From an uncultured Gemmatimonadales bacterium (lineage in GTDB: Bacteria; Gemmatimonadota; Gemmatimonadetes; Gemmatimonadales; Gemmatimonadaceae): a DNA stretch of 64,000 nucleotides. Shown here in pieces: positions 1-64,000 of this stretch (position 1 is the stretch's first letter; every line of letters begins with the position of its first letter). A model generated the notes under the pieces. That model worked only from the letters and a program-made list of their open reading frames with translations, ran no database searches and was not told the origin of the DNA. A program made the position numbers and the translations under genes. The stretch lies in the NCBI GenBank assembly GCA_963851265.1, contig CAWKNZ010000005.1, forward strand, positions 224,001 through 288,000, written 5' to 3'.

Positions 1-670
1 GAGCGAGGTCGAGCGCGAGTTGCAGCGGGTCCACGGGCCGCTGCTCGCCGCAGTCGACGAGGTCGGGCGGGGCCCCCTGGCGGGCCCCGTCGTCGTTTGC
101 GCCCTCGTCATGCCCCCCGACGCGCCCGAGGTGCCGGGCGTCGACGATTCGAAGAAGCTCGCGCCGGCCGCGCGCGAGCGGGTCGCGGAGGCCGTGCGCG
201 CGGCCGCCGTCGCCTGCGCGTTAGGCGCCGCGTCCGCGCGCGAGGTGGACGCCCTCAACGTCTACCACGCCACGGCGCTCGCGATGCGTCGGGCGCTCGC
301 CGGGCTCGCGCGCCGGCTCGACGCGCGCGGGCTCGGGGCCGCGCCCGGGCACGTGCTCGTCGACGGCAAGCCGGTGCGGTCGTTGGGCGTGCCGCACACC
401 GCGGTGGTCGGCGGCGACGCGCGGTGCTACGCGGTCGCGTGCGCGTCGGTGGTCGCGAAGGTGACGCGCGACCGGCTCATGCGCGCACTCGCCGCGCGTC
501 ACGCGGCCTACGCGTGGGAGCGCAACGCCGGGTATCCGACGCCGGCGCACCGCGCCGCCCTCGGCGCGTTCGGACCCACCGCGCATCACCGGCGGAGCTT
601 TCTCCACGGCGCGTCGGGCGCGGCGGGGACGTCGGAGCTGGCGCCGCGCGGCCTGACCCGCGGCCGGTAG
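1..670 (+). CDS. rnhB: Ribonuclease HII (5' partial; frame open to the window edge)
   Basis: Motifs VDEVGRGPLAGPVV, DDSKKL, LVDG, GGDARC..VACASVVAKVTRDRLM, GYPT..H, HRRSF. Confidence 0.95.
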   Translation, partial: SEVERELQRVHGPLLAAVDEVGRGPLAGPVVVCALVMPPDAPEVPGVDDSKKLAPAARERVAEAVRAAAVACALGAASAREVDALNVYHATALAMRRALAGLARRLDARGLGAAPGHVLVDGKPVRSLGVPHTAVVGGDARCYAVACASVVAKVTRDRLMRALAARHAAYAWERNAGYPTPAHRAALGAFGPTAHHRRSFLHGASGAAGTSELAPRGLTRGR

Positions 671-893
671 CGCCGGCGCTACGCCTAACGCGTCGGGCGT
701 TAGTCCTGCTACGTCGCGCGGGCGACCGGGTGACGCGTGCCGCACGGGATGCGGCGGAGTCCGGCGTAGGACCGCCGGCGTGTGATGCGGGTCACCCGCG
801 GGCGGGTGCGCTGGCCGTAGGTTCGCGTTGTCGGTCTACGAAGTCCGGGGCATCAGAGTCCCGCGTGCGACACTCACACCGTCGAGGATTCCT

Positions 894-1520
894 ATGAAGC
901 GTTCCCTGCTCGCCGCCGCGCTCGCGTTCGGCGCCGTCTCCACCAGCGCCTGCGCCACGAAGGGCTACGTCAACCGCCAGGTCGAGGGCGCGGTGAGCGC
1001 CGAGCGACTCGCGCGGGCCAACGGGGACAGCACGAACGCCCGCGACATCGCGGCGGTGCGGGCGGACGTGCAGGGGCTGCGCGGGGACCTGCAGTCGCTG
1101 CGCACCGAGTTCGGCGCGCGTATCACGGCGATGGAGAATTCGGTGAAGTTCGACATGCCCGTACACTTCGCCTATGACAACTCGTCGGTCCGCACCGAAG
1201 ACGAGGCCGCGCTCGCGCGCTTCGCCGGCGTGGCGCAGAAGTATTACGGCGGGTCGGTGATCACGGTCGAGGGCTTCGCCGACAACGCGGGCTCGGAGCG
1301 CTACAACCTCGCGCTCTCGCAGCGCCGCGCCGACGCCGTGCGCGACTACCTCGTCAGCCACGGCCTGCAGCAGGCCCAGCTGAAGACCGTTGGCTACGGC
1401 AAGACCCGTCAGGTGCGTCCGGGCGCCGCGGGCGACGCGCCGGGCGCGGAGCTGAACCGCCGCGTCGTGTTCGTCGTCGAGGCCTCCGGCGCGTCGACCG
1501 TGACCGCGATGGCGCAGTAA
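894..1520 (+). CDS. OmpA/Pal-family peptidoglycan-binding lipoprotein with N-terminal coiled coil
   Basis: GAGGA RBS before ATG 894; lipoprotein-like signal ending STSAC; C-terminal OmpA domain (FAYDNS, VEGFAD..GSERYNLALSQRRA, GYG, NRRV). Confidence 0.9.
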   Translation: MKRSLLAAALAFGAVSTSACATKGYVNRQVEGAVSAERLARANGDSTNARDIAAVRADVQGLRGDLQSLRTEFGARITAMENSVKFDMPVHFAYDNSSVRTEDEAALARFAGVAQKYYGGSVITVEGFADNAGSERYNLALSQRRADAVRDYLVSHGLQQAQLKTVGYGKTRQVRPGAAGDAPGAELNRRVVFVVEASGASTVTAMAQ

Positions 1521-1540
1521 GTAGCAAGCTGTCGCCCATA

Positions 1541-1570
1541 GCGCCGGGACCGCGATCGCGGTCCCGGCGC
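1541..1570. terminator. Perfect 30-bp palindrome downstream of the OmpA gene; probable terminator hairpin
   Basis: GCGCCGGGACCGCGA|TCGCGGTCCCGGCGC; no clear U-tract. Confidence 0.55.
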
Positions 1571-1621: not shown

Positions 1622-3775
1622 ATGACAGATCTTCCTGCCAGCGCGCCGCCCGCGGGCGCCGTCCCCGACCGCCGCCGCGCGCGACCGGCGGCCGCGGCGA
1701 CCACGTTCCCGCCGATCATCGTCGATGCCGTGACCCCCGCCGTGGACGGCGGCCGGTTCGCGGTCAAGCGCCTCCTCGGCGACACCATCACCGTCGAGGC
1801 CAACGCGTTCAAGGACGGCCACGACAAGCTGCGCGCCCGCGTGCGCTACCGCGGGCCGACCGGCGCGTCGGGCGAACCCGGCGAGTGGCGCACGGCGCCG
1901 ATGCGTTACGACGACGCGACCGACCGGTGGGTCGGGGCGTTCACCGTGGACGCGATCGGGACGTGGACGTACACGGTCGAGGCGTGGACCGACACCTTCG
2001 AGACCTGGCGTTCGGGACTCGGCAAGAAGTACGAGGCGGGGCAGGACGTCTCGGTCGAACTGATCGAAGGCAGCCGGATGATCGACGCGGCCGCGCGCCG
2101 CACCCGCTTCGGCGCGGGCCGCCGCGCGCTCGAAACCGCGGCCCGTGCCCTCGGTGACACCGCGCAGAGTGCCGACGAGCGCGTACGTGCCGCGCTCGCC
2201 CCCGAGCTGCGCGCCGTGATGGCCGAACACGCGCCGCCGTCGGACCTCACCGCGTACGCGCGCGAGCTACCGCTGCTTGTCGAGCGCCGGCGCGCGGGAT
2301 TCGCGGCGTGGTACGAGTTCTTCCCGCGTTCCGCGACCGACGACCCGGCCGTCCACGGCACGTTCCAGCAGGCCGAAGCGATGCTGCCGCGCATCGCCGC
2401 GCTCGGCTTCGACGTGGTCTACCTGCCGCCCGTCCACCCCATCGGCGTCACGTTCCGCAAGGGCAAGAACAACTCGCTCGAGGCCGGGCCCGACGACGTG
2501 GGCAGCCCGTGGGCGATCGGCGGCGAGGCGGGCGGGCACACCGCCGTGCACCCGCAGTTAGGCACCATCGAGGACTTCGACCGCTTCGTCGCGCGCGCCG
2601 CCGAGCTCGGCCTCGAGGTCGCGCTCGACTACGCGCTGCAGTGCTCGCCCGACCACCCCTGGGTGAAGGAGCACCCAGACTGGTTCCGCGCCCGCGCCGA
2701 CGGGTCCATCGCCTACGCCGAGAACCCGCCGAAGAAGTACCAGGACATCTACCCGCTCGACTTCTGGACGGCCGACCGCGAGGCGCTGTGGAACGCGTGC
2801 CGCGACGCCCTGCTGTTCTGGGCGGAGCACGGCGTGCGCACGTTCCGCGTCGACAACCCGCACACGAAACCGTTCGCGTTCTGGGAGTGGGTGATGGCCG
2901 AGGTGCGGCGCACGTACCCGGACGTGGTGTTCCTGGCCGAGGCGTTCACGCGGCCCAACAAGATGCTGCACCTCGCCAAGGCGGGCTTCTCGCAGTCGTA
3001 CACGTATTTCACGTGGAAGACCGAGAAGTGGCAGATCGAGCAGTGGCTGGCGGAGTTCCTGTCACCCGCGGTGACCGAGTACCACCGCGGGAATCTGTTT
3101 CCCAACACCCCGGACATCCTGCACGAGTCGCTCGTCGCGGGCGGCCGGCCGATGTTCCGGCAGCGTCTCGTCCTCGCCGGCACGCTGAGCCCCGTGTGGG
3201 GGATGTACAGCGGTTTCGAGCTGTGCGAGAACGTGCCCGTGCGCCCGGGCAGTGAGGAGTACCTCGACAGCGAGAAGTACCAGATTCGCGTGCGCGACTA
3301 CGCGCAGCCCGGCAACCTCGACGCCGACGTCCTGCGCATCAACCGCATCCGGCACGCCGAGCCCGCACTGCAGCGGCAGGACAACCTCACCTTCCACCCC
3401 ATCAGCGACGACCGGATGCTGTTCTTCCGGAAGGCCGGGCGTGAGGGAATCGAGGCCGACCTCCTCGTCGCGGTGAACCTCGACCCGCACGCGGTGCGCT
3501 ACGCGTGGGTGGAGGTGCCGATCGCCGCGATGAACATCGGGCCCGACGAGTCGTACGAAGTGGAGGACCTGCTCACGGGCGCGCGCTACACGTGGCGCGG
3601 CGCGCACAATTTCGTGCGGCTCAACCCGTGGCACGAGCCGGCGCACGTGCTGCGAGTGGCGCCGCGCGCGCCGCGGTACCGGCCGCCCGCGCCCGGGCTC
3701 GACACGGACGCACACGGGCAGCCCGTCCCGGACCCGTCGCCCACGGCGGCGGTCGGGTCGACGCCGGCCGCTTGA
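1622..3775 (+). CDS. glgE: Alpha-1,4-glucan:maltose-1-phosphate maltosyltransferase GlgE
   Basis: WYEFFPRS, YLPPVHPIG, RKGKNNSL, GSPWAIG, ENPPKKYQDIYP, FRVDNPHTKP, FLAEAFTRP, EEYLDSEKY. Confidence 0.95.
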   Translation: MTDLPASAPPAGAVPDRRRARPAAAATTFPPIIVDAVTPAVDGGRFAVKRLLGDTITVEANAFKDGHDKLRARVRYRGPTGASGEPGEWRTAPMRYDDATDRWVGAFTVDAIGTWTYTVEAWTDTFETWRSGLGKKYEAGQDVSVELIEGSRMIDAAARRTRFGAGRRALETAARALGDTAQSADERVRAALAPELRAVMAEHAPPSDLTAYARELPLLVERRRAGFAAWYEFFPRSATDDPAVHGTFQQAEAMLPRIAALGFDVVYLPPVHPIGVTFRKGKNNSLEAGPDDVGSPWAIGGEAGGHTAVHPQLGTIEDFDRFVARAAELGLEVALDYALQCSPDHPWVKEHPDWFRARADGSIAYAENPPKKYQDIYPLDFWTADREALWNACRDALLFWAEHGVRTFRVDNPHTKPFAFWEWVMAEVRRTYPDVVFLAEAFTRPNKMLHLAKAGFSQSYTYFTWKTEKWQIEQWLAEFLSPAVTEYHRGNLFPNTPDILHESLVAGGRPMFRQRLVLAGTLSPVWGMYSGFELCENVPVRPGSEEYLDSEKYQIRVRDYAQPGNLDADVLRINRIRHAEPALQRQDNLTFHPISDDRMLFFRKAGREGIEADLLVAVNLDPHAVRYAWVEVPIAAMNIGPDESYEVEDLLTGARYTWRGAHNFVRLNPWHEPAHVLRVAPRAPRYRPPAPGLDTDAHGQPVPDPSPTAAVGSTPAA

Positions 3776-3880: not shown

Positions 3881-5607
<1,727 letters not shown>

Positions 5608-7490: not shown

Positions 7491-10057
7491 ATGCGCGTCT
7501 GGCCCGGTCAACCGTACCCGCTCGGCGCCTCGTGGGACGGCGGCGGCGTCAACTTCGCGCTCTTCTCGGAGAACGCCACGGGCGTCGACCTCTGCCTGTT
7601 CGACGCGCCCGACGACGCGCGCGAGCGGCTGCGGATCCCGCTGCGCGAGCGCAGCGATCAGGTGTGGCACTGCTACCTCCCCGACGTGCGCCCGGGGCAG
7701 CTCTACGGCTACCGCGTGCACGGGCCGTACGCGCCCAAGCACGGCCACCGCTTCAACCCGGCCAAGCTGCTCATCGACCCGTACACCAAGGCGGTGAGCA
7801 ACAGCATCCGCTGGAGCGACGCGCTGTTCGCGTACCAGGTGGGGAGCCCGCGCGAGGACCTCACGCTGAATCGCGACGAGGAGACGTCTGGGGCGGTGAA
7901 GTGCGTGGTCATCGACGACGCGTTCACCTGGGGGGACGACCGGCCGCCGCGCACGCCGTGGAACCGCACGGTGATCTACGAGGCGCACGTGAAGGGGATG
8001 ACCGTCGCGCACCCGGAGCTCGACCCCAAGGTCCGCGGCACGTACCTCGGGCTCTGTACCGACCCGATCCTCGACCACCTGCAATCGTTAGGCGTGACCG
8101 CGCTGGAGCTGCTCCCCGTGCACCACGCCGTGGTCGACCGGCAGCTGGCCGACAAGGGGCTGACCAACTACTGGGGCTACAACTCGATCGCCTTCCTCGC
8201 CCCCGACATCCGCTACGCCAGCGAGGGCGCGACGCGCGGGCAGCAGGTGTACGAGTTCAAGACGATGGTGAAGAAGCTGCACGCGGCGGGGATCGAGGTG
8301 ATCCTCGACGTCGTGTACAACCACACCGGCGAGGGAAACCACCTCGGGCCGACGCTCTCGCTGCGCGGGGTCGACAACAAGGCGTACTACCGCCTCGTGC
8401 CGGGGGACGAGCGGTACTACATGGACTTCACCGGGACGGGCAACTCGCTCAACATGATGCACCCGCGGACGATCCAGCTGATCATGGATTCGCTCCGCTA
8501 CTGGGTGACCGAGATGCACGTGGACGGTTTCCGGTTCGACCTGGCGCCGGTGCTCGCGCGCGAGCTGTTCGAGGTGAACCGGCTGTCGGCGTTCTTCGAC
8601 ATCATCCACCAGGACCCGATCCTGAGCCGGGTGAAGTTGATCGCCGAGCCGTGGGACGTCGGGCCCGGCGGCTACCAGGCCGGCAACTTCCCCGTCGGGT
8701 GGGCGGAGTGGAACGGGCAGTACCGCGACTGCGTGCGGCGCTTCTGGCGCGGCGACCAGGGCGTGGTGCCCGAACTGGCGAGCCGGCTGTCGGGGTCGAG
8801 CGACGTGTACGCGTGGAGCGACCGCGCCGCGTACGCGAGCGTCAACTTCGTGACTGCGCACGACGGCTACACGCTGCGCGACCTCGTCAGCTACGAGCGC
8901 AAGCACAACGAGGCGAACGGCGAGGGCAACCGCGACGGGCACGACGACAACCTCTCGCGCAACTGGGGGCAGGAGGGCGAGACCGACGACGCCGCGGTGA
9001 ACGCGCGGCGGCGGCGCGCGATGCGGAACTTCATCGCCACGCTCGCCTTCTCGCAGGGCGTGCCGATGTTGTCGCACGGCGACGAAGTCGCGCGCACGCA
9101 GCGCGGCAACAACAACGCGTACGCGCAGGACAACGCCCTGTCGTGGGTCGACTGGGACCTGGCGCCGTGGCAGGACGAGCTGCGCGAGTTCACGCAGCGG
9201 GTGATCGCCATCCGCCACGCGAACCCGGTGCTGCGGCGGCGCAGCTTCTTCCGCGGCCGCCCGATCGGCGCGGCCGGGGCGAAGGACCTCGCGTGGGTGC
9301 GCCCGGACGGGGCCGAGATGACGCAGGGCGACTGGAACGACCGGACGCGCCGCGTGCTCGGGATGCTCATCAACGGCGATGCGGCGGACGAGACCGACGA
9401 CCGCGGTCGCCCGGTTAAGGGGGACACGATGCTGCTCGTGCTCAACGGCGGGTTCGACCCGGTGGAGTTCACCCTTCCCGTGGTGGCCGGCGCGGACGCC
9501 GCACACGGCGATCACCAGAACGGCGACCACCAGAACGGCGCCCACGAGCCCGGGTCGTGGGCGACGCTCATCGACACGGCGCACGACGGGTCGCGCGGCG
9601 AGGCGCAGGGCGCGTCGGTGCACGTGGACGGCTTCTCGCTCGTGCTCCTGCGCTACGGGCTCGAGCGGCGCCTCGCGCTCTCGGACCCGGCCGAGGCGGC
9701 GCTCGTCAACACGCTGGCGGTCAGCGGCCGCGGCGCGTTCACCGGCGGTTCGGGCCCGACGCGCGACGTCGACCCCGCGAGTCCCGAGGCGCACGAGCCG
9801 CGCGATCCGGCGTCGGCGGGCGTGCCGACCCCGATTCCTGCCGTCCCGCTCGCGGCGCAGGCGACCACTACCGGGCCGAAGAAGCCGTCGGAGTACGTTC
9901 CACCCGAGGCGCGCTCCGAAGACCCGGACGATGAGACGACGACGGCGTCCGGGGACGGGGCGGTCGAGGGCGCGGCGACCGCGCCGGACGCCCCCGCACC
10001 CCGGGCGTCCGCAGCAGACGCGGCCGCGCCGGATGCGCGGGACGCCGAGGGCGCGTC

Positions 10058-10061: not shown

Positions 10062-12533
<2,472 letters not shown>

Positions 12534-12541: not shown

Positions 12542-14756
12542 GGCGCTCTCGCTGCGCGCGCTGGCCGCGTACGTCGGCGTGCTGCCGGGGTACACGGCGA
12601 TGGACGGTGAGTACCGCGCGGCGTCGGACGCCGCGCGCGAGCGGATCCTCGCCGCACTGGGGCACGACGCGCACGATGCGCCGGCCGCGCGCGGCACCCT
12701 GCGGATGCTGTTGGCCGACGCGCGCGCGCGTCCGATCGCGGAGTCGCGAGTGGTGGTCGCGGGCGCGGAGGCGCGCGCCGTGCGCGTGCGCCTCGAGGCC
12801 GCGCCGTGCGACCTCGTCGACTGGACGCTCGCGCTCACGCTCGAAGACGGGAGCACGCACGAGGCCGCGGGCCGCGCGCCGGTCGAGGCGCGCGGCCCGC
12901 GCGCGGGCGTGGTCGCGCTCGACCTGCCCGTGGACCCGCCACTCGGCTACCACACGCTGCGCGTCACGGTGGACGGCGCGGGCGAGCGGCGCGAGGCGGC
13001 GCAGCACCTGATCGTCGTCCCGCCGCGCTGCGCGTCGCCGGCGGCGGTGCTCCGCGGCGAGCGCGTGGCCGGGGTCACCGCCAGCCTCTACGCCGTGCGG
13101 AGCGCGCGCAACTGGGGCGCGGGCGACCTCACCGACCTCGGCGCGCTCGTCGGCCTCACCGCGGACCACGGCGGCGCGTTCGTCGGCGTGAACCCGCTCC
13201 ACGCGCTCCGCACGTCCGGCCACGAGCCGAGCCCGTACGGGCCCGTGAGCCGCGTCTTCCGGCACCTCCTCTACCTCGACGTCGACGCCGTGCCCGAACT
13301 GGCGCACGACGCCGACGCGCGCGCGCTCCGCGGCGACCCGGCGCTGGCCGAGACGTTAGGCACGCTCCGCGCGGCCGACCGGGTGGACCACTCGGCGGTC
13401 CTCGCCGCGAAGCGGCCGGTGCTCGAGGCGCTCCACCGCGCGTTCCGCCGGCTGCCGGCGAGCGCCCCCCGCCGGCGCGCCTACGACGCGTACGCGGCGG
13501 AGCAGGGCGACGCGCTCGACCGATACGCGACTTTCCAGGCGCTCGACGAGGACTTCCGCGGGGAAGGCCTCGGGTGGTGGCCGGAGTGGCCGGCCGAGCT
13601 GCAAAACGCGGCGGGTGACGCGGTGCGGGCGCTCGCGGCGGAGCACGCCGAGGCGGTCGACTTCCACCGCTGGGTGCAGTTCGAGCTCGACGCGCAGCTC
13701 GGCGCGGCCGCGGCGCGCGCGCGCGGGCGCGGGCTGCCGGTCGGATTGTACCAGGACCTCGCGGTCGGCGTCTCGCCCGCCGGGGGCGACGTCTGGGGGG
13801 AACGCGCGCTCTTCGTCACCGGCGTGTCGCTCGGCGCGCCCCCCGACGCGTTAGGCCCGGACGGGCAGAACTGGGGCCTGCCGCCGATGAACCCGCGCCG
13901 GCTCGCGAGCGGCGGCTACGCGCCGTGGGTGCGGCTCGTGCGCAGCGCCATGCGCCATGCGGGCGCGCTGCGCATCGACCACGCGATCGGGATCTTCCGC
14001 CAGTTCTGGATCCCGGAGGGGAGTACGGGGCGTGACGGCGCGTACATGCGCATGCCCGCCGACGATCTGTTGGGCATCCTCGCGCTCGAGAGCGTGCGCG
14101 CGAACGGCGGCGCGGGCGCCCTGGTCGTCGGCGAGGACCTCGGCACGGTGCCTCCCGAGGTGGCGCCCGGGCTCGCGCGGTGGGGCGTGCTGTCGAGCAA
14201 GGTGCTGTACTTCGAACGCGGCGAGCACGGCACGTTCACTCCGCCGCGCACCTACGCGCGCACCGCGCTCGCGACCGTCAACACGCACGACCTCGCGACG
14301 CTCGCGGGGTGGTGGGCCGGGCGCGACGTGTCGCTCCGGCGCGAACTCGAGCTGGCGACCGACGAGGAAACCGAAGTCGCGCGCGGGGACCGGGCGCGCG
14401 AGCGGGCGCAGCTCGTGCGGCTTCTCGTCGGCGAGGGTGTCCTGGACCCGGCGGCGGTCGAGGGCGCGGAGCACGGCGAGATCCCGGACGCGCTCGAGGC
14501 GGAGGCGCTCGACGACCTGGTGCTCCGCTCGGCGGTGCACGCGGCGCTGCGGCGCGCGCCGAGCTGGATGGTCGGGCTCGCGCTCGAGGACCTCGTCGGC
14601 GAGACGGAGCCGGTGAACCTGCCCGGGGTGGGACCGGACAAGTTCTCGAGCTGGACGCGGCGGCTGCGGATGCCGTTGGAGGCGGCCGCGACCGATCCGG
14701 GGGTGGCGCGGGCGTTCGGAGTGGAGCGGGTCTGGACCGTCCCTCCCCACGCCTGA
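12534..14756 (+). CDS. malQ: 4-alpha-glucanotransferase (amylomaltase, GH77)
   Basis: LYAVRS..NWGAGD, VNPLH, PSPY.P.SR, LYQDLAVG, GAPPD...GQNWG, ALRIDH, GEDLG, THDL, NLPG; ATG 12534 overlaps the glgB end. Confidence 0.93.
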
Positions 14757-23083: not shown

Positions 23084-24013
23084 GTGCGGAGGCGTTGGGT
23101 CGGAACGGTCGCGGCGGGCATCGCGTTAGGCACGACGTTCGCCACGTCGTCGCGCGCGGCCCGCGGCCAGCCGGGGGTGGCTGCTCTCGCGGCGCCGCGG
23201 CCGGCCCCGGTGGCCGCTCCGCGTTCGTCGCGGCCGCGCGGGGTCGCGCTCCGGCTGCGCCCCCGCGTGGGCGACACGGTGCGGACGCGATTCGAGCAGA
23301 CGGTCCGCCTGATGCCGCGCGGCACGGCCGGCTCGGCCGACGTGGTCCCGGCGAGCGCCATGCTCGTGATCGCGCGCTCGATCGTCGAGCGCGTCGACGA
23401 CGCCGGCGCATTTCTGCTGGCGGTCACGGACTCGGTCGCGTTTCGCGCCCCCGGCGCGCCGGCGGCCGCGGTCGAGCGCATGCGGCGCGGGATGCAGGGG
23501 CGCCGCGCCGAGATGCACGTCGCGCCGGACGGCGCACTCGCGGCGAGCGACGGCGTGGCGGGCGGACTGCCCGCGGGGCTGGCAGGCGGGGCCGTCGGCG
23601 TGGTCGCCTCGCTCCGCCTGCCCGGCACGCTCCCGGCGACGGTCGTCGCGCCCGGCGCGCGCTGGCGGCGCGCGATGGCCGTGCCGGCCTGGGGCCCCGC
23701 CGCGGCCCCGCCGCACCTCGACGTCGCCTTCCGGTTCGACTCGATGACCGCCGACGAGTCGCGCGCCTACATCTCACTTCGCGGCCGCGTGCACGGCGCC
23801 GCGACGCCCGAGTCGGACGACGACCTGCTTCCGGGCACGATGGGCGCCGCCGAGCCCGGGCGCGTCGAGGGCGCGCTCGTCGTCGACCTCGCGCGCGGCT
23901 GGGTGGTCGAGTCGTGGGCGACGTTCCGGCTCAACGCCGTCCTGGTGAGCGCGCCCGGCGCGGCGCCCGCGCCGGTGTGGGTGGTCGTCACGCAGCGTCT
24001 CAGGGCCTACTGA
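23084..24013 (+). CDS. Hypothetical exported protein, probably beta-rich
   Basis: Signal-peptide-like N-terminus, high GC3 codon pattern, 7 bp after the HerA stop. Confidence 0.65.
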   Translation: MRRRWVGTVAAGIALGTTFATSSRAARGQPGVAALAAPRPAPVAAPRSSRPRGVALRLRPRVGDTVRTRFEQTVRLMPRGTAGSADVVPASAMLVIARSIVERVDDAGAFLLAVTDSVAFRAPGAPAAAVERMRRGMQGRRAEMHVAPDGALAASDGVAGGLPAGLAGGAVGVVASLRLPGTLPATVVAPGARWRRAMAVPAWGPAAAPPHLDVAFRFDSMTADESRAYISLRGRVHGAATPESDDDLLPGTMGAAEPGRVEGALVVDLARGWVVESWATFRLNAVLVSAPGAAPAPVWVVVTQRLRAY

Positions 24014-34264: not shown

Positions 34265-34275
34265 CGCATCCGGCC

Positions 34276-34941: not shown

Positions 34942-34967
34942 CCCGCCGGACGCGTTAGGCTGCGCGC

Positions 34968-42918: not shown

Positions 42919-43072
42919 GTGCGGCGGGGTGGCGGTGCGGTCCGCCGACCCCGCCGGTGGGGCCGTCCAGCCAACACCGGGTGCGCGCGATCCGTGTTCC
43001 GGACCCGTCGCCCTAGCGACCAACGGCCGGCTGACCGGCGCCGCCGTCGTTCGATCATGCCGCGTAACCGCG

Positions 43073-46655
<3,583 letters not shown>

Positions 46656-48434: not shown

Positions 48435-49853
48435 ATGATCGTCCAGCCCGCCACCGTCGGGAGTGCTGCGACGGCCGCACCGCCGCACGCGCCGCCGTCG
48501 CCCCTCGCGCTGATCGAGCGCAAGCGGGACGGCGGCCGCATAGCGCCCGACGAGTGGCGCGCGCTTGCCAACGCGTACGCGCGCGGCGCGGTGCCCGACT
48601 ACCAGATGGCCGCGCTACTCATGGCGGTCTACTTCCGCGGCCTCGACCGCGCCGAGACGCGCGCGCTCACCGACGCGATGCTCGCCAGCGGCGCGCGGCT
48701 CGCGCTCGGCGGCCTCGCGGCCCACGGCTGGCGCGGCCGCGTGGACAAGCATTCCACCGGCGGCGTCGGCGACAAGGTGTCGCTCGTCCTCGCGCCGCTC
48801 GTCGCCGCGCTGGGTGTCGCGGTGCCGATGATGTCGGGGCGCGGGCTCGGGCATACGGGTGGCACGCTCGACAAGCTCGAATCGATCCCGGGCTTCCGAA
48901 CGGACCTCCCCCTCGACCGCGCCACGCGGCAGCTCGAGCGCCTCGGCTGCGCGCTCATCGGGCAGACGGCCGAGATCGCGCCGGCGGACCGCAAGATGTA
49001 CGCGCTGCGCGACGTGACCGGCACCGTCGAGTCCATCCCGCTGATCGCGGCGAGCATCATGAGCAAGAAGCTCGCGGAAGACCTCACCGGCCTGGTACTC
49101 GACGTAAAGCGGGGCTCGGGCGCGTTCACGCCCGAGGTCGAGCGCGGCCTCGAGCTCGCGCGGGCGATGGTCGCGTTAGGCGCGGACCACGGCTGCCCGG
49201 TGGTCGCCCTGGTCACCGCAATGGACCGCCCGCTCGGCCGCGCGTGCGGCAACGCGCTCGAGGTGGAAGAGGCCGTCCTGGCCCTCCGCGGCGAGGGCCC
49301 GCCCGACCTCATGGCCGTCACCTACGCGCTCGGCGCGGAGATGCTCGTACTGGGTGGCGTCTGCGAGACCCGCGAGGCCGCGCACGCGGCCATGCGCGCG
49401 GCGACCGCCGACGGGCGCGCGGCCGCCAAGTTCCAGGCGATCGTCGACGCGCAGGGCGGCAACCCCGGCGTCGTCGACGACCCGGCCGCGCTGCCGCAGG
49501 CCCCCGTGCGCGCGCCGTACGAGGCCCCGCGGGACGGCGTCATCGCCCGCGTCGAGCCGCGCGCGGTGGGGCGGGGGATCATCGCGCTCGGCGGCGGACG
49601 CACGCGCGTCGACGACCGCATCGACCCGGCCGTGGGCTTCTCGATCAGCGCGCGCCCCGGCGACCGCGTGTCGCGCGGCCAGCCGCTCGCGACCGTCTGC
49701 GCGCGCGACGCGGCGGGGCTCGCGGCCGGCCGCGCCGCGCTCGACGCGGCGATCACGATCGTCGACCCGTCGTCGGCCGAGTCGGCGCCCGCGCCGCTGG
49801 CGCTCGTCTCGCACCGGGTCACCGCGGCCGGGGTCGAGGTGCTCGCCGCGTGA
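48435..49853 (+). CDS. pdp: Thymidine / pyrimidine-nucleoside phosphorylase
   Basis: IERKRDG, DYQMAALLMA, DKHSTGGVGDK, SGRGLGHTGGTLDKLESIPG, ASIMSKK, GNALEV. Confidence 0.93.
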   Translation: MIVQPATVGSAATAAPPHAPPSPLALIERKRDGGRIAPDEWRALANAYARGAVPDYQMAALLMAVYFRGLDRAETRALTDAMLASGARLALGGLAAHGWRGRVDKHSTGGVGDKVSLVLAPLVAALGVAVPMMSGRGLGHTGGTLDKLESIPGFRTDLPLDRATRQLERLGCALIGQTAEIAPADRKMYALRDVTGTVESIPLIAASIMSKKLAEDLTGLVLDVKRGSGAFTPEVERGLELARAMVALGADHGCPVVALVTAMDRPLGRACGNALEVEEAVLALRGEGPPDLMAVTYALGAEMLVLGGVCETREAAHAAMRAATADGRAAAKFQAIVDAQGGNPGVVDDPAALPQAPVRAPYEAPRDGVIARVEPRAVGRGIIALGGGRTRVDDRIDPAVGFSISARPGDRVSRGQPLATVCARDAAGLAAGRAALDAAITIVDPSSAESAPAPLALVSHRVTAAGVEVLAA

Positions 49854-50267: not shown

Positions 50268-51838
50268 CTGGGCGCGCGCGGCGAGCCACCCGGCGGGCGT
50301 GCCAGCTCGCCGCGGCGGTCGTCCTGCCGACGGTGGCCGGTGCCCAGGTGCGGGCCGCCGTGGTCACGCCGATGGCGACCGGGGACGCGGGCCGGCTCGT
50401 CGCCGCGCTCGCGGGCGATACACCACTCGGGAGCGACCTCGAGGAACTCACGGACCGCATCGGCGGCCGGCCGACCGGGAGTGACGCCAATCGCCGAGCG
50501 ATCGCGTGGGGCGTCGAGAAGTTCCGCGCGATGGGCGTGAGCGCGCGGGCCGAGCCGTTCACGATGCCCGGGCTCTGGCTCGAGCGGAGCGCGGCGGCCA
50601 CGGTCGAGGGTCCCGGCGTGCGCTTCGCGGCGCACGTGGCCGCGATGCCGTTCTCGACCGCGACGCCGGCTGCGGGCACCACGGCTCCGCTCGTCGACGC
50701 CGGCCGCGGCACCGACGCCGATTTTGCCCGGCTCGGCGCGCGCGCCCGCAACGCCTTCGTCCTCGTCGAACAGGACGAGCTGAAGGACATCGACGGCCTG
50801 TTCAAGGAATACGCCGACGCCACGGACATCGAGCGGCGCGCGTTCGCCGCGGGCGTCGCCGGCGTGGTCTATACGGGCTCGCGACCGAACGACCTGCTCT
50901 ACCGGCACAACGTCAGCACCGGCCTGGCGAACACGCGCCCCATGCTCGTGATGGACCGCGACGGCGCGCTGCGCGCGCTGCGCCTCCTGCGGAGCGGCCT
51001 GGCCCTCACCCTCACCGAACGCCTGGACCTCGACCGCGGCCCCGCGTACCAGAGCGCCAACGTCGTCGGCGAGATCCGCGGCGCGGTACAGCCCGACGAG
51101 GTGGTCGTCGTCGGCGCCCACCTCGACTCGTGGGACCTCGGCACGGGCGCGCTCGACAACGGGGCGAACGTCGCGCTCGTGCTCGACCTCGCGCGCCAGG
51201 CGCACGCGTTAGGCCTGCGGCCCGCGCGCACCGTGCGCTTCGTCCTCTGGAACGGCGAGGAGCAGGGCGAGTACGGCTCGGCCGGCTACGTGCGCGCCCA
51301 CGCGGCGGAACTCGACCGCCACGCGATGACGCTGACGTTCGACATCGGCTGCGGGCGGATCACGGGCTTCTTCACGGGCGGGCGGCCGGACGTGGTCGCG
51401 GCGACCACGCGCGCCCTCGCGCCCGTCGCCGGCTACGGCCCGTTCGCCGAGGTCGACCAGCCGATCGTCGGCACCGACAACTTCGACTTCATGCTGGCCG
51501 GCGTGCCCAACCTGGTCGCCAACCAGGAGCCGGCGACGTACGGCCCCAACTACCATGCGCGCTCCGACGAGTTCGCGGCGTGCGACCTCCGCCAGCTGCG
51601 CCAGAACGCGCAGATCGCCGGCGCGGTGGTGTGGGACGCCGCGAACGCCCCGGCCCGCCTCGCGCGCCAGTCGCCCGCGCAGGTCGCCGACCTGTTCCGC
51701 CACAGCGACCTCGCGCAGCAGATGGTCGCGATGGGCGGCTGGGACGAGTACGTACGTGGCGAGCGCGGTGTCGCGCCGGTGCAACCCCTGCCGAGCACCG
51801 CGCCGCCGGCGGGGAAGTCCGCGAGCGATAATCGTTAG
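50261..51838 (+). CDS. M28-family metallopeptidase (carboxypeptidase Q-like, PA domain)
   Basis: IGGRPTGS, VGAHLDSWD.G.GA.DNG, GEEQG, GTD, YH...D; start uncertain. Confidence 0.88.
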   Translation: MVAGRARRATRRACQLAAAVVLPTVAGAQVRAAVVTPMATGDAGRLVAALAGDTPLGSDLEELTDRIGGRPTGSDANRRAIAWGVEKFRAMGVSARAEPFTMPGLWLERSAAATVEGPGVRFAAHVAAMPFSTATPAAGTTAPLVDAGRGTDADFARLGARARNAFVLVEQDELKDIDGLFKEYADATDIERRAFAAGVAGVVYTGSRPNDLLYRHNVSTGLANTRPMLVMDRDGALRALRLLRSGLALTLTERLDLDRGPAYQSANVVGEIRGAVQPDEVVVVGAHLDSWDLGTGALDNGANVALVLDLARQAHALGLRPARTVRFVLWNGEEQGEYGSAGYVRAHAAELDRHAMTLTFDIGCGRITGFFTGGRPDVVAATTRALAPVAGYGPFAEVDQPIVGTDNFDFMLAGVPNLVANQEPATYGPNYHARSDEFAACDLRQLRQNAQIAGAVVWDAANAPARLARQSPAQVADLFRHSDLAQQMVAMGGWDEYVRGERGVAPVQPLPSTAPPAGKSASDNR

Positions 51839-54403: not shown

Positions 54404-55545
54404 GCCCCGACGACCCCGTCGCGCACCGTCGCGCGGTCCAAGCCGGTGAACTCGTCCGGGATGTCGCTCGCGCGCGGCACGGCGAGGATCGCCTGGCCGA
54501 GCCCGGCCTCGCCGAGCAGGTCGAGGATGCGTCGCGCACGACGGGCGTCGAGTTCGGCGAAGGGGTCGTCGAGCAGGAAGAGCGGCGGGCCGCCGATCGC
54601 GTCGCGGAGCGTGGCCGCCTCGAGCATGCGGAGCGCGATGGCGGCCGTGCGCTGCTGCCCGCCCGACCCGTAGGTGCGCAACTCGCGACCGCCGAGCGTG
54701 ATCTCGAGATCGTCGCGGTGCGGCCCCACGTGCGTCGCGACGCGCTTGAGGTCGAACGCGCGCCGGTCGGCCAACCCCTGCTCGATGGCCGCGCGCGCGG
54801 ACGCGATTTCGGCCTCGGGGCCACCGGCCGCGTCGGCGGGGGCGACGAGCGCGGTCGCGTAGCGGATGCGGACGGGCGCGCGCTCGCCGATCGCGGCGCA
54901 CAGGGCCGCGTACGCGTCCGCACGCGCCTCGACCCACCGCCGCCGCTCGGTCCAGAGCACCGCGCCGTGCTCCGCGAGCGCGGGCTCCCAGACGGCCACG
55001 CGCGCCTCCCCGCGCCCGGTGCGCGCGGCGTCGCGCAGGGCGGCATTGCGGCGCACGAGCGCGCCGCGGTACGCCTGCAGCGCCGCGAGGTACGGGCGCG
55101 ACGTGAGCGCGAGCACCACGTCCAGGTAGCGCCGCCGCTCGCTCGGCGCGCCGGACACGAGTGCCACGTCGCCCGGCGAGAGGATCACGCTCGGGACGGC
55201 GCCTAACGCATCGCTCAGCCGCGCCGGCTCGGCGCCGTCCACGCGCACGCGTTTCCGCTTGCCGGCGCGCTCGAAGCCGACGCCCGCGTCTCGCGTGCGG
55301 AGCCCGTCGGCGGTGGGCACGGCGGCGACCGCCTGCACGTGGAACGCGCCCGCGCCGAAGCGCACGAGCTCGGCGTCCCGCGCGCCGCGCACGGAGCGCA
55401 GCAGCTGCAGGTAGTAGATCGCCTCGAGCAGGTTCGTCTTGCCGTGGCCGTTCTCGCCGACGACGGCGAGCCCCGCGGGCGCGAGGTCGAGCGCGACGCG
55501 CTCCAGGTTGCGGAAGTCGCGCACGACGAGCCGCTGGAGGCGCAC
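54400..55545 (-). CDS. recF: DNA replication/repair protein RecF
   Basis: DFRNL, GENGHGKTNLLEAI, P.ERRRYLD, GPHRDDL, GSGGQQR, LLDDPFAELD. Confidence 0.95.
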   Translation of the reverse strand: MRLQRLVVRDFRNLERVALDLAPAGLAVVGENGHGKTNLLEAIYYLQLLRSVRGARDAELVRFGAGAFHVQAVAAVPTADGLRTRDAGVGFERAGKRKRVRVDGAEPARLSDALGAVPSVILSPGDVALVSGAPSERRRYLDVVLALTSRPYLAALQAYRGALVRRNAALRDAARTGRGEARVAVWEPALAEHGAVLWTERRRWVEARADAYAALCAAIGERAPVRIRYATALVAPADAAGGPEAEIASARAAIEQGLADRRAFDLKRVATHVGPHRDDLEITLGGRELRTYGSGGQQRTAAIALRMLEAATLRDAIGGPPLFLLDDPFAELDARRARRILDLLGEAGLGQAILAVPRASDIPDEFTGLDRATVRDGVVGA

Positions 55546-55595: not shown

Positions 55596-56375
55596 TCAGC
55601 GCCCCGTGAAGCGCGCGGCGCGCTTCCCGAGGAAGGCCTGCGTACCCTCGCGCATGTCTTCGGTGGCCGCGGCGAGGCCGAAGGCGGTGGCCTCGAAGCG
55701 CAGCGCCTCGTCGAGCGGCAGGTCGTAGCCCGCGTTCACCGCCTCGACCGCGAGCGCGAGCGCGATCGGCGCGTTGGCGAGCATGGCCGTCAGCAGCGCG
55801 CGCGCGCGATCGAGCAGCTCGCCCGCGGGCACCACGGCGTTCGCGAGCCCGATGCGGTAGGCCTCCTGCGCGTCGATCTGCTCCCCCGTGAGCAGCAGCT
55901 GCAGCGCGCGCCCCTTGCCGACGAGCCGCGCGAGCCGCTGCGTCCCGCCGTATCCGGGGACGAGCCCGAGCTTGACCTCGGGCTGGCCGAACTTCGCCGC
56001 CTCGCTCGCGAGGCGCACGTGACAGCACATCGCCAGCTCGCACCCGCCGCCTAACGCAAACCCGTTGACCGCCGCCACCGTGGGCTTGGCCGACGTCTCG
56101 AACTTGCGGAAGCTCTCCTGCCCCTTGCGGGCGAGGCGCTTGGCCTCGTACGGCGACGCCCGCCCGACCTCGCCGATGTCCGCGCCGGCGACGAACGCGC
56201 GCCCCGCGCCGGTGAGGATCACGCCGCCCACGTCGTCGCGCCCGGCGACCTCGTCCATCGCGAGCCCGAGCTCGGTGATGAGCGCGTCGTTGAGCGCGTT
56301 GAGTTTGTCGGGGCGGTTGGCGGTGATCGTCGCGATCCGGTCGACGACGTCGAGCGTGAGCGTGGAGTAGGCCAT
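55596..56375 (-). CDS. Enoyl-CoA hydratase / crotonase
   Basis: NRPDKLNALN, AFVAGADI, AVNGFALGGGCEL, FGQPEVKLG..PGYGGTQRL. Confidence 0.93.
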   Translation of the reverse strand: MAYSTLTLDVVDRIATITANRPDKLNALNDALITELGLAMDEVAGRDDVGGVILTGAGRAFVAGADIGEVGRASPYEAKRLARKGQESFRKFETSAKPTVAAVNGFALGGGCELAMCCHVRLASEAAKFGQPEVKLGLVPGYGGTQRLARLVGKGRALQLLLTGEQIDAQEAYRIGLANAVVPAGELLDRARALLTAMLANAPIALALAVEAVNAGYDLPLDEALRFEATAFGLAAATEDMREGTQAFLGKRAARFTGR

Positions 56376-56464: not shown

Positions 56465-57613
56465 ATGACGCCGCAATGGATTCTGCGAAAGGGTACGAAG
56501 CGCTCCGGGTTCCGGTACGTCACCACGGGCGGCAAGCCGGCCCCCGAGTCCGCCCGCGAGCGCGCGACCGCGCTCGTCATCCCGCCCGCCTGGACCGACG
56601 TCCACATCGCCGCGTCGCCCACCGCCGCGGTGCAGGCCTGGGGCTTCGACGCGAAGGGGCGCAAGCAGTACCGCTACCACGACCGCGCCGCCGAGCGCGG
56701 GCAGCTGCGCAAGTTCTACCGCGTGCGCCAGATGGCGCGCGACCTCCCGGCGATCCGCGCCGCCGTCGCGACCGACTTCCGCGCGAAGGCCGCGGGCCAA
56801 CCCCTGACCAAGCGCCGCGTCGCGGCCGCGGTCGTCCGCCTCATCGGCGAGTCGTTCTTCCGCGTCGGCAGCGACCGCTACGCGCAGGAGAACAAGACGT
56901 TCGGCGTCGCCACGCTGCGCAAGAAGCACGTGACCGTCCACGACGGCGGCGAGTCCGGCGACCGCGTCGTCTTCGACTACATCGGCAAGGAGTCGATCCG
57001 GCAGCATCAGGTGGTGTTCGCGCCCGATCTCGTCGCGTTCGTCCGCGAGTTGCTCGCGACGCCGGGCCCGCGGCTCTTCCGCTACCAGTCCAAGGGCGAC
57101 GACGGGCGCCTGCACTGGCACGACCTGACGTCGCGCGACGTCAACGAGTACATGCACGACGTGCTGGGCGTGCCGTACTCGGCGAAGGACTTCCGCACGT
57201 GGGGCGGCACGCTCCGCCTCGCGACCATCCTCGCCGACATCGGCCCGGGCAAGACGCCGCGCGAGTCGCAGAAGAATCTCGTGGTCGCGCTGCGGCTCGT
57301 CGCGTCCGAGTTGGGCAACACGCCGACGGTCTGCCGCAAGGCGTACGTGCACCCGCTCGTCATCGCGCGCTACCTCGACGACGGGTCGACCATCGCGCCG
57401 TTCCTCACGCGCGCGTCGGTGACGCGCGCCAACACCCGCGCCGCCGTCGGCGGGCGCGGGCACGAAGGGCACCCGCCGGAGGAGCGGGCGCTGATCGGCT
57501 TCCTCGACAAGTACTTCCCGGAGCGCCGCACGAAACGGCGTGACCGTCGCAAGCGCGACCGGGAGGCCGTCGGCGAGCGGCGCGCAGCCCGCGCGGTGGC
57601 GGACGCGGCCTAA
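56465..57613 (+). CDS. DNA topoisomerase IB (bacterial poxvirus-like)
   Basis: IPPAWTDV.I, G.DAKGRKQYRYH, FRVG..RY, GK, AKDFRTW, LGNTPTVCRKAY (catalytic Tyr), VHP. Confidence 0.93.
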   Translation: MTPQWILRKGTKRSGFRYVTTGGKPAPESARERATALVIPPAWTDVHIAASPTAAVQAWGFDAKGRKQYRYHDRAAERGQLRKFYRVRQMARDLPAIRAAVATDFRAKAAGQPLTKRRVAAAVVRLIGESFFRVGSDRYAQENKTFGVATLRKKHVTVHDGGESGDRVVFDYIGKESIRQHQVVFAPDLVAFVRELLATPGPRLFRYQSKGDDGRLHWHDLTSRDVNEYMHDVLGVPYSAKDFRTWGGTLRLATILADIGPGKTPRESQKNLVVALRLVASELGNTPTVCRKAYVHPLVIARYLDDGSTIAPFLTRASVTRANTRAAVGGRGHEGHPPEERALIGFLDKYFPERRTKRRDRRKRDREAVGERRAARAVADAA

Positions 57614-57629
57614 CGCCCGCGGGCGTTCC

Positions 57630-59693: not shown

Positions 59694-60336
59694 AGCCCTC
59701 GAGGCACACTGCCGGGCGCTCGCGGCCTGCCGCCGGTGCGCGGCCGAGCTTCCGCCGGGCGCGCTACCGGTGATCCCCGAGTCGCGCGCGCCGCGTGCCA
59801 TGCTCATCGGCCAGGCGCCCGGCCCCACCGAGGCGACCAGCCGCCGGCCGTTCCAGGGGCGGGCGGGGAAGACGCTCTTTCGCTGGCTCGCGCTCGCGGG
59901 GTTGGACGAGGCCCAGGCGCGCGAGTTCTTCTGGATCGCGGCTGTGACCCGGTGCTACCCCGGCCCGCACGCGCCGGCCCGGGGCGGCGGCAGTCGGGGC
60001 GACCGCGTGCCGACGCCGGGCGAGCGGGCGCGCTGCGCGTCGTGGCTGGAGGCCGAATTCGCGCTCGTGCGGCCCGCGTTCGTCGTCACGTTAGGCCGGC
60101 TCGCGGTGGACCGGTTCCTCGCCCCCGCGCCGCTTACGGCGCTCGTCGGTCGGGTGCACGCGGCCGCGGTCGGCGGGCGCGCCGTGCCGGTGTTGCCGCT
60201 GCCGCACCCGTCGGGGGCGAGCGGGTGGCTCAACGTCGCCGAGCACCGCGCCCTGCTCGCCGTCGCACTCGATCGCCTGGCTGCCGAAGTGGCCGCGCTG
60301 CGCAGTGCGGAGGCGACGGCGGCGCCGGCCGGCTGA
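59683..60336 (+). CDS. Uracil-DNA glycosylase superfamily protein (family 4/5-like, Cys ligands)
   Basis: CRRC, LIGQAPG, PFQGRAG..L..W, TRCYP, PLPHPSG. Confidence 0.85.
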   Translation: MRAEALEAHCRALAACRRCAAELPPGALPVIPESRAPRAMLIGQAPGPTEATSRRPFQGRAGKTLFRWLALAGLDEAQAREFFWIAAVTRCYPGPHAPARGGGSRGDRVPTPGERARCASWLEAEFALVRPAFVVTLGRLAVDRFLAPAPLTALVGRVHAAAVGGRAVPVLPLPHPSGASGWLNVAEHRALLAVALDRLAAEVAALRSAEATAAPAG

Positions 60337-63063: not shown

Positions 63064-63833
63064 GGCGCCGCGACTTCCTCGCCGCGGCCGGCGTCGCCGC
63101 GTTGGGCAGCACGCGGATCGCCCGCGCGGCCGGGGCCCAGCAGCGCCAGATCCCGGTCGCCCAGCAGGCGCCGGACGGAGGGGCCACTCCGCGCGATTCC
63201 GCCGGCGCGCCGCCCGCGCCCAACGCCGCCGACGGCGCCGCAGGCACGCCGTCCAGCGCGTCCAACGTGCCGATGGACCCCAGCGCCTACAAGGCGGTGG
63301 GTCGACCGCCCAAGCCCAACGCGACGCCGCTGCTCACGGCCGAGCAGCGCGACGCGCTCGAGCACCGCATCAAGTGCCAGTGCCCGTGTACGCTCGACGT
63401 CTACACGTGCCGCACCACCGACTTCAGCTGCGGCGTCTCGCCCGCGATGCACGGCGACGTGCAGCAGCTCGTGGCCGGGGGTTACTCGGGCGACGAGATC
63501 CTCGCCGCGTTCACGCAGACCTACGGCGACCGCGTGCTGATGTCCCCGCCCAAGGTCGGCTTCAACCTCGCCGGCTACTTCGCACCGATGGCGGTCCTCG
63601 GCACCGGCACGGTGGTCGTGGCGTCGCTCATGCGCCGGTGGAGCACGCGCGCTGCCGCCGTCGCGGCCGCCAACGCCGGCCGCGCGTCGGCCCAGCCCGC
63701 GCCGCTCTCCCACGCGCGCGCGGACCGCGGCGACCCGGTGTCGTACAGCGCGGCCGACGCCGCCGCGCTCGGCGCCACCCCGGAGGAGCTCGCGCGACTC
63801 GAAGCGGCGGTGCGCGGCGAGCCGCGCACCTGA
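63060..63833 (+). CDS. ccmH: CcmH/CycL-like protein with twin-arginine-type N-terminus and atypical Cys cluster
   Basis: GTGA overlap with ccmF; RRRDFL; IKCQCPC...C......C; G.S..EI...F...YGDRVL..PP followed by a TM helix. Confidence 0.75.
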   Translation: MRRRDFLAAAGVAALGSTRIARAAGAQQRQIPVAQQAPDGGATPRDSAGAPPAPNAADGAAGTPSSASNVPMDPSAYKAVGRPPKPNATPLLTAEQRDALEHRIKCQCPCTLDVYTCRTTDFSCGVSPAMHGDVQQLVAGGYSGDEILAAFTQTYGDRVLMSPPKVGFNLAGYFAPMAVLGTGTVVVASLMRRWSTRAAAVAAANAGRASAQPAPLSHARADRGDPVSYSAADAAALGATPEELARLEAAVRGEPRT

Positions 63834-64000
63834 TGGCCGTCCCGACCGGCACCCTGGCGTTAGGCGCGGGGACCGCCCTCGCCCTCGGCGCCGCCCTCGT
63901 CGTGCTCGGCCCGCTCTGGGCCGAGGACGCCGATGCGCCCCTCGCCCCGCTCCCGCCCGACCCCTCGCGCATCGCCCTCGGCCCCGCCGCCGCGTCGATC
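63833..64000 (+). CDS. Membrane-anchored protein, 3' partial (position suggests a CcmI-like ccm accessory)
   Basis: TGATG overlap with ccmH; hydrophobic N-terminus MAVPTGTLALGAGTALALGAALVVLGPLW. Confidence 0.55.
   Translation, partial: MAVPTGTLALGAGTALALGAALVVLGPLWAEDADAPLAPLPPDPSRIALGPAAASI

Follow-up and report, generated by a model that had tools for sequence, protein, structure and literature searches.

The stretch of DNA analysed here (the window, 64,000 nucleotides at full length; C5:224001-288000) belongs to G000, the genome of an uncultured Gemmatimonadales bacterium represented by a 4.60-Mb assembly of 12 contigs with about 73% GC. It carries a dispersed octamer, CGTTAGGC, referred to below as the word; YGTTAGGC is its general form and the heptamer GTTAGGC its core. 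An earlier note had claimed 28 exact octamers and two core-only heptamers, at 2557 and 42594, and every one of them was recovered at its position. The 28 octamers (19 on the plus strand and 9 on the minus strand) compare with a mean of 1.28 and a maximum of 4 in 100 dinucleotide-preserving shuffles, and the 30 GTTAGGC heptamers with 2.42 expected. Pfam agreed with the gene names proposed for RNase HII, GlgB, the SbcD-like metallophosphoesterase, topoisomerase IB and GyrB. The copies are listed below with the open reading frames (ORFs) around them, whose coordinates and strands are in brackets.

219..226, plus strand: octamer, sense, within the RNase HII gene (2-670 +)
683..690, minus strand: octamer, spacer between the RNase HII gene and an OmpA-family gene
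2557..2563, plus strand: core-only GTTAGGC, GlgE-like gene (1601-3775 +)
4050..4057, plus strand: octamer, alpha-amylase-family gene (3881-5611 +)
8086..8093, plus strand: octamer, CBM48/alpha-amylase gene (7491-10061 +)
10540..10547, minus strand: octamer, antisense in glgB (10058-12541 +)
11931..11938, plus strand: octamer, sense in glgB (10058-12541 +)
13354..13361, plus strand: octamer, 4-alpha-glucanotransferase gene (12438-14756 +)
13849..13856, plus strand: octamer, 4-alpha-glucanotransferase gene (12438-14756 +)
15563..15570, plus strand: octamer, between ORF calls (14756-15899)
19779..19786, plus strand: octamer, phosphorylase-like gene (19160-21052 +)
20610..20617, plus strand: octamer, phosphorylase-like gene (19160-21052 +)
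23124..23131, plus strand: octamer, ORF without a Pfam match (23084-24013 +)
24166..24173, minus strand: octamer, sense in a PLD-like gene (24055-25296 -)
26656..26663, minus strand: octamer, antisense in the SbcD-like metallophosphoesterase gene (26414-27700 +)
27531..27538, plus strand: octamer, sense in the SbcD-like gene (26414-27700 +)
29054..29061, plus strand: octamer, between ORF calls (27700-30190), in the putative sbcC of the earlier note
31424..31431, plus strand: octamer, between ORF calls (31170-31771), probably spacer
34259..34266, minus strand: octamer, between ORF calls (33506-34968)
34953..34960, plus strand: octamer, just beyond an AMP-binding enzyme gene (34968-36884 -)
36654..36661, minus strand: octamer, sense in the AMP-binding enzyme gene (34968-36884 -)
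42594..42600, plus strand: core-only GTTAGGC, amidohydrolase gene (40759-42918 +)
43071..43078, plus strand: octamer, between ORF calls (42918-45247)
49174..49181, plus strand: octamer, pyrimidine-nucleoside-phosphorylase-type gene (48435-49853 +)
51207..51214, plus strand: octamer, peptidase M28 gene (50072-51838 +)
55201..55208, minus strand: octamer, between ORF calls (54673-55596)
56049..56056, minus strand: octamer, sense in an enoyl-CoA hydratase gene (55596-56402 -)
57608..57615, minus strand: octamer, reading GCC-TAA-CG on the plus strand, where the TAA at 57611-57613 is the stop of the topoisomerase IB gene (56465-57613 +)
60089..60096, plus strand: octamer, between ORF calls (59693-60305)
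63858..63865, plus strand: octamer, between ORF calls (63063-64000)

Across G000 the word occurs 1396 times and is the most over-represented 8-mer of the genome (1396 against about 58 expected, z = 175, order-3 Markov model). Under a maximal-order Markov model it is unremarkable, because the 7-mers inside it are equally enriched. Its spelling is strictly YGTTAGGC. With C at the 5' position the enrichment is 24-fold and with T 11-fold, while the remaining single-base neighbours range from 0.4- to 3.7-fold; 1762 of the 1794 TTAGGC hexamers have a G directly 5', and among the 16 GTTRRRY heptamers GTTAGGC alone is enriched (1762 against 126 expected, 13.9x). The near-cognate words CGTTGGGC (2.3x) and TGTTAGGC (11x) are not depleted, and the flanking bases show no extended conservation apart from a preference for G or A just 3'. 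As had been proposed, the word is non-palindromic, its reverse complement being GCCTAACG, and it is used on both strands (708 forward and 688 reverse copies).

The word is selected on DNA and not on protein, in agreement with the earlier note. Genes were called by our own crude procedure from ORFs and patterns of GC at third codon positions, which gave 2841 ORFs covering 80% of G000, so the frame counts are approximate. These ORFs contain 899 copies, against a mean of 39.2 and a maximum of 56 in 30 within-gene codon shuffles that preserved amino acids and per-gene codon counts; the ratio of observed to expected is thus far above 1 under a codon-aware null. Each stop-free frame is enriched 9- to 36-fold: the sense frame xCG-TTA-GGC holds 641 copies (shuffle mean 17.8), the antisense frames xxG-CCT-AAC-Gxx and xGC-CTA-ACG hold 159 (13.6) and 58 (6.4), and the sense frame xxC-GTT-AGG-Cxx holds 41 (1.4). 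TTA codons are concentrated in the context of the word, 641 of the 1179 in G000 standing in CG_GGC and 136 further in TG_GGC. Where the frame includes a stop, the word is placed at the ends of genes, GCC-TAA-CG making up 72 of 341 TAA stops and GT-TAG-GC 64 of 615 TAG stops. Word density climbs as constraint falls, from 0.24 per kb in ORFs to 0.62 per kb in short spacers; by spacer type it is 1.46 per kb in convergent (tail-to-tail), 0.51 in tandem and 0.44 in divergent spacers, and the reversed control word occurs 4 times across all scored spacers. Since every stop-free frame, the stop codons and the spacers are all used, the signal lies on the DNA, and the accommodation in coding frames that had been likened to the DNA uptake sequences (DUS) of Neisseriaceae and the uptake signal sequences (USS) of Pasteurellaceae is borne out. 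A signal acting in protein or in translation (a Leu-Gly motif, for example, or a TTA codon with a regulatory role) would suit the 641 of 899 ORF copies read as sense xCG-TTA-GGC. However, the other frames, the stop codons and the spacers are likewise enriched, the antisense frame is used equally per compatible peptide, and the enrichment is abolished by a shuffle that preserves amino acids. This explanation, to which we attach practically no probability, was excluded on the strength of the synonymous shuffle, the use of stop codons and the spacer enrichment.

The distribution of the word was determined in the 31 nearest genomes (G000-G030) and in 100 more genomes drawn evenly from the phylum, scored against the reversed control word; the tallies include the unpublished genomes G011, G077 and G116 as rows only. 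Ten of the 31 nearest genomes are enriched. They comprise all five genomes of the genus of G000 (g1), with 727 to 2415 copies, members of four other genera of the family (G008 with 605, G012 with 6360, G017 with 460 and G018 with 516) and one genome from another family (G030, 345 copies). The other 21 carry at most 194 copies, every one of them below its reversed control. In the phylum sample G113 is clearly enriched (709 copies against 201 for the control), G052 (173) and G070 (191), both of the same family, are intermediate, and the remaining 97 genomes have at most 91 copies. The word-rich genera are g1, g5, g9, g14, g15, g22 and g32. As a negative control, 80 loci around GlgB genes from many phyla, too scattered for comparing orthologous sites, were inspected, and 66 were without any copy. 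The motif is therefore present genome-wide and in relatives, including all four other genomes of the genus. The proposal of a lineage-specific signal is too simple, the occurrence being patchy within one family (10 of 31 near genomes, 1 clear case in 100 phylum-wide). In G012 (genus g9, 60.6% GC), the densest genome, the 5' preference is as in G000 (C in 105, T in 18, A in 1 and G in 1 of 125 cases). In a 100-kb sample of this genome, ORFs totalling 51.5 kb hold 54 octamers, where synonymous shuffling leaves 3.1, and a third to half of the compatible peptides carry the word (20/58, 13/26 and 19/40).

Orthologous sites were compared with those of two congeners, G001 and G004, along some 80 kb of syntenic sequence at roughly 80-85% nucleotide identity. 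Words of G000 were conserved in 20 of 34 cases in G001 and 20 of 33 in G004, compared with 32.9% and 35.8% for all 8-mers. Among 62 three-way alignable sites, 14 have the word in all three species and 16 in two, and the species-private words number 8 in G000, 13 in G004 and 11 in G001. The counterparts of unshared words are ordinary codon versions, for example CGCTCGGC, CGCTGGGC and CGTTGGGC. Retention of the word thus exceeds the background rate, with gains and losses in every species. Double substitutions from CTC to TTA were considered as a sign of one-step writing; at this divergence synonymous sites are close to saturated, so they carry no information on this point and were set aside. The syntenic block offered just 7 kb of unaligned sequence for comparing word density between core and accessory DNA.

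Word orientation showed no relation to GC skew in 92 segments of 50 kb (rho = -0.007) and followed gene direction (rho 0.44). In regions strongly biased in gene direction, sense and antisense copies were in a ratio of 16:5 in minority-direction genes and 82:16 in majority-direction genes, small numbers that have limited power given the weak GC skew. Together with the strand totals (708 against 688), the correlation is in line with the claim that the motif lacks the replication polarity of Chi or of KOPS, the FtsK-orienting sequences whose strand polarity switches at origin and terminus, within the limited power that the weak GC skew allows. The description of the copies as mostly following gene direction did not stand. 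Per compatible peptide the antisense reading Pro-Asn-[VADEG] (159 of 885) is as frequent as the sense reading [SPTA]-Leu-Gly (641 of 3970), and the G012 sample has a sense to antisense ratio of 22:32; as the two are used alike per peptide, the gene-direction trend is an effect of coding opportunity. Close neighbours are avoided. There are 27 gaps of 50-200 bp where 96.5 would be expected and 87 of 200-400 bp where 120 would be, with gaps of 400-3200 bp in excess, as if one word per few hundred bp sufficed; inverted pairs less than 120 bp apart number 26 among the 1396 copies. The word is thus exact, strand-symmetric, kept at orthologous sites with turnover, and spaced away from its own close neighbours.

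The longest GTTAGGC-free stretch in G000 measures 45,086 bp (C1:182876-227962); with words 2.6 kb apart on average, chance would not be expected to leave a gap of this size. Inside it are gidA, parA, parB and mnmE, as well as a perfect 16-bp palindrome, TGTGGCACGTGCCACA, which occurs twice (C1:192709 and C1:195715, beside gidA and parA) and nowhere else in the genome. The palindrome occurs twice at the equivalent place in G001 and in G004, G012 having canonical parS instead, and it is probably a genus-specific parS variant. The genes dnaA, dnaN and yidC of G000 lie within a 15-kb word-free gap, and other big gaps cover the infC-pheST and nusA-infB operons. The idea that large word-free stretches are foreign islands was rejected, their contents being housekeeping genes (dnaA-dnaN-yidC, gidA-parAB-mnmE, infC-pheST and nusA-infB). 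In G001 and G004 the regions orthologous to the 45-kb stretch are likewise poor in the word: G001 has an 18.9-kb gap at dnaA and 6 words within 20 kb either side of parS, and G004 has 15-16 words in the latter interval. In G012 the largest gap in 100 kb around dnaA is 5 kb, and the 20 kb on each side of parS together hold 46 words, with no depletion. Exclusion of a bound protein around parS would therefore suit G000 and G001; G004 shows the pattern weakly and G012 not at all.

The separation between dnaA and parB is 130-180 kb in this genus (C1:12048 for dnaA and C1:196643 for parB in G000) and about 20 kb in two other genera of the family (G012 contig C51 and G008 contig C32), a difference that points to a rearranged chromosome, or to inserted DNA, close to the origin. 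A second ParA-type ATPase gene with an adjoining ORF without a Pfam match lies in the window at 36998-38772, distant from the parAB locus on C1.

Viral contigs were scanned for two words 150-180 bases apart, which returned at least 120 loci, mostly chance pairs and few truly dense. L190 (an IMG/VR viral contig, 1-12181) carries 24 octamers in 12.2 kb at 62% GC and encodes a terminase; L136 carries 13 in 18.3 kb, with genes for terminase, portal, protease, major head protein and two methyltransferases; and L161 carries 9 in 20 kb, with RecE- and RecT-like genes. The genes of L190 lie nearly all on one strand and 20 of its 27 core words are antisense to them; some words provide the TAA stop of a gene or fill the stretch from ribosome-binding site to start codon.

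The earlier note knew of no described function for the word. The word is, however, the canonical form of the integron attC/attI core GTTRRRY, and G000 has a cassette array of its own. According to PMC12901181, attC sites follow the consensus RYYYAAC ... GTTRRRY and cross over after the G; GTTAGGC fits GTTRRRY perfectly and its complement fits RYYYAAC perfectly. Same-strand dense runs in the non-enriched genomes G019, G021 and G029 are cassette arrays whose attC sites consist of GCCTAAC, a spacer and YGTTAGGC, 72-136 nt in total. The array of G000 (C10:185000-215025 and C6:1-3000) has attC sites of 97-121 nt with the same GCCTAAC...YGTTAGGC boxes; it reaches the end of contig C10 and probably continues onto C6 beside a broken intI. 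In attC, paired boxes form an imperfect hairpin of 50-150 nt, whereas 98% of the G000 copies are lone words in ordinary genes, with neither partner box nor hairpin; and the integron core tolerates other GTTRRRY spellings, which in G000 are not enriched. Integrons account for the spelling of the word but not for its genome-wide spread. Literature searches found no paper describing the YGTTAGGC word, the word searches yielding primers and unrelated matches, and those on integrons and attC in Gemmatimonadetes giving unrelated papers only.

Candidate machines were scored family by family in the 31 nearest genomes. ComEC and PilT were each found in 31 of 31, VirB4 of type IV secretion in 2, RecC in 1 and the PDDEXK_1 nuclease domain of AddAB/AdnAB type in 11, among them 3 of the 10 enriched genomes (it was not found in G001, G002, G004, G008, G012, G017 and G018). 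The ComP_DUS family (PF16732) had no match in G000 and passed the cut-off in 1 of 31, a non-enriched genome. Transformation machinery throughout the order is plausible on these counts, conjugation is rare, and the known readers of Chi were mostly not found. The nuclease counts (11 of 31 for AddAB-type genes and 1 of 31 for RecC) also indicate that most of these genomes seem to be without the usual enzymes for processing double-strand ends. G000 has nine prepilin-type genes. One encodes a minor pilin of 173 residues (C7:452372-452890; locus L282:869-1390, minus strand) whose family is present in 29 of 31 genomes and in which Pfam recognises only the N-terminal methylation motif. Its structural model (pLDDT, a predicted per-residue confidence, of 82.8) has FimU 4IPU as best structural match (E = 2e-6) and also matches EpsH, GspH and, lower in the list, the DNA-binding FimT. 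In all 12 aligned genomes of the order its C-terminus reads SRLGRVR without variation. A GRxR motif binds DNA in FimT of Legionella, according to PMC8897410, and since the tail contains this motif, the protein, of predicted FimU/GspH/FimT fold, is a candidate DNA-binding pilin. No residue in the alignment of the 12 genomes clearly tracks word enrichment. Neither IntI, ComEC, PDDEXK_1, RecC, PilT, ComP_DUS, VirB4 nor the FimT-like pilin separates enriched from non-enriched genomes among the 31.

The DUS of Neisseriaceae are read by the minor pilin ComP. The word appears to work most like this family of signals, although it is not a strict member, no ComP having been found. It shares with DUS and USS an exact, short and non-palindromic spelling present on both strands in hundreds to thousands of copies, an orientation in which no replication polarity was detected at the power available, the use of all reading frames against codon habit, a higher density in spacers behind genes, conservation at orthologous sites with turnover, a short-range spacing more even than chance, and the presence of genes for a type IV pilus and for ComEC (background on the two kinds of signal is given in part by the abstracts of PMC2397512 and PMC3458573). 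It differs in belonging to another phylum, in the lack of a ComP_DUS homologue in G000, in being identical to the integron core, in saturating phage contigs, and in that inverted pairs in terminators are rare. The reading that we favour, tentatively and at somewhat less than an even chance, is that the word is a self-tag resembling DUS and USS, spread by molecular drive through a route of DNA exchange (probably pilus-dependent transformation) and spelled after the integron R box. A DNA-exchange protein, most plausibly one belonging to the type IV pilus and ComEC route, would prefer fragments that bear the word; alleles gaining it by point mutation would be passed on and recombined more often; and it would build up wherever protein coding and codon selection tolerate YGTTAGGC. 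The spelling would have been taken from the attC R box as the commonest repeated word in the DNA pool of an integron-rich order, and cassettes would thereby carry the same tag as the chromosome. We infer both the driver, an uptake or recombination bias, and the borrowing of the spelling. A more specific proposal, which we consider doubtful, is that an uptake or DNA-exchange receptor of some Gemmatimonadaceae has itself adopted the integron R box, in which case the 8-mer would be both cassette crossover site and chromosomal self-tag, and word-bearing cassettes and phages would count as self. Such a receptor would tie cassette traffic mechanistically to sequence-specific DNA exchange, in a phylum from which neither competence nor an uptake sequence is known to have been described.

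Several observations weigh against the self-tag. Transformation genes do not discriminate enriched from non-enriched relatives, being present in nearly all of them; a receptor of the ComP_DUS type was not found in G000; and a literature search found no report of natural transformation for this phylum. Identity with the integron core is not predicted by an uptake model and needs an extra assumption. Genuine phage contigs (L190 and L136) carry the word at or above host density, which counts against an uptake drive because uptake bias does not act on virion DNA, though it could act on prophages. Finally, the neighbourhoods of dnaA and parS are word-poor in genus g1, for which an extracellular reader gives no reason.

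The main rival is an intracellular self-mark, in which an abundant DNA-binding protein, for instance one derived from a tyrosine recombinase or one that blocks nucleases, would read YGTTAGGC on any replicon, and marked DNA would be spared or better handled, so that chromosomes, plasmids, phages and cassettes would come under selection to bear the word. We regard it as possible but rather unlikely. Phage contigs as dense as the host or denser, with words in antisense frames, in TAA stops and between ribosome-binding site and start, speak for it, as does the identity of the word with a site bound by integron integrases; and the word-poor surroundings of dnaA and parS in g1 look as if bound sites were unwelcome there. 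Such zones fit an intracellular reader better than an extracellular one, though inconsistently across genera, the parS region of G012 with its 46 words being undepleted. Moreover, no candidate protein was found, RecBCD and AddAB, the known 'missing-self' readers, were not found in most enriched genomes, and the phage enrichment could stem from time spent as prophage under the drive of the host. The remaining rivals (repair or methylation drive, integrase docking and a Chi-like function) are less likely. A word driven by modification or repair, in the manner of HIP1 or of very-short-patch repair, would have a methyltransferase and repair pair convert near-matches during mismatch correction; it would affect all replicons of a cell, those of phages as well, and L136 has two DNA methyltransferase genes. 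The near-cognates are not depleted, however (CGTTGGGC at 2.3x and TGTTAGGC at 11x), the word is non-palindromic, short-range repulsion is not expected of a process that acts on each site autonomously, and no candidate enzyme was found, though no search aimed at one was made. This origin is unlikely. HIP1 of cyanobacteria is an 8-bp palindrome tied to methylation sites, whose reader or cause is debated. Like HIP1, the word is an 8-bp sequence imposed genome-wide on coding sequence; unlike it, it is asymmetric and its near-cognates are not depleted.

The dispersed words could also be attG- or attI-like docking or crossover sites for IntI, made or kept by cassette traffic. The exact fit to GTTRRRY, the GCCTAAC...YGTTAGGC attC sites of G000, G019, G021 and G029, and the frequency of the integron integrase in the order (TIGR02249 above cut-off in 18 of 31 genomes) speak for it. 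Yet integron sites depend on an integrase, and the enrichment does not follow IntI, which passes the cut-off in 5 of the 10 enriched genomes and in 13 of the 21 others. The intI of G000 (C6:3005-6044, locus L120) is split into two parts, which match model positions 2-265 and 260-313 and lie about 2 kb apart; the insert between them codes for a large serine recombinase that has Resolvase, Recombinase and Zn-ribbon domains. G012 has only out-of-frame intI pieces and G008 none. Only 9 GCCTAAC/YGTTAGGC box pairs exist in G000, 35 of its 1762 heptamers lie within the two array regions, the remaining GTTRRRY variants that IntI tolerates are not enriched, and sites in essential genes would be harmful insertion targets. 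We therefore judge integrase docking improbable. A recombination nuclease had been among the readers suggested by the earlier note. As an over-represented 8-mer at about 1 per 3.3 kb, a density similar to that of Chi in E. coli, the word resembles a hotspot that halts a helicase-nuclease, and phages would benefit from it too. However, RecC was found in 1 of 31 genomes, PDDEXK_1 in a minority (11 of 31, with 3 of the 10 enriched genomes among them), and co-orientation with replication was not detected, at low power. A Chi-like function is very improbable and, for the known machines, largely refuted.

To our knowledge, the only established cases of sequence-specific self-tagging for DNA exchange are those of Neisseriaceae and Pasteurellaceae. 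If the word of G000 is a self-tag of this kind, a third independent case, in an abundant and poorly studied soil phylum, would show the generality of the phenomenon, with up to half of the compatible coding sites carrying the word in one genus (g9). That it is identical to the integron core suggests a connection, open to test, of cassette recombination with the choice of DNA for exchange. Because the trait is patchy among close relatives, the gene for its reader should be findable by association. The word may also serve as a simple marker for distinguishing native from recently imported DNA and for assigning phages to hosts.

Apart from the word, the window contains a contiguous alpha-glucan cluster (1601-21052) comprising a GlgE-like maltosyltransferase, a TreS-like amylase, a maltokinase-like protein, a CBM48 debranching-type enzyme, GlgB, MalQ, a large amylase-family protein and a phosphorylase-like protein. 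G000 is taken to be a member of Gemmatimonadaceae because the closest protein matches of the GlgB in the window are from metagenome-assembled genomes of that family, at 63-69% identity.

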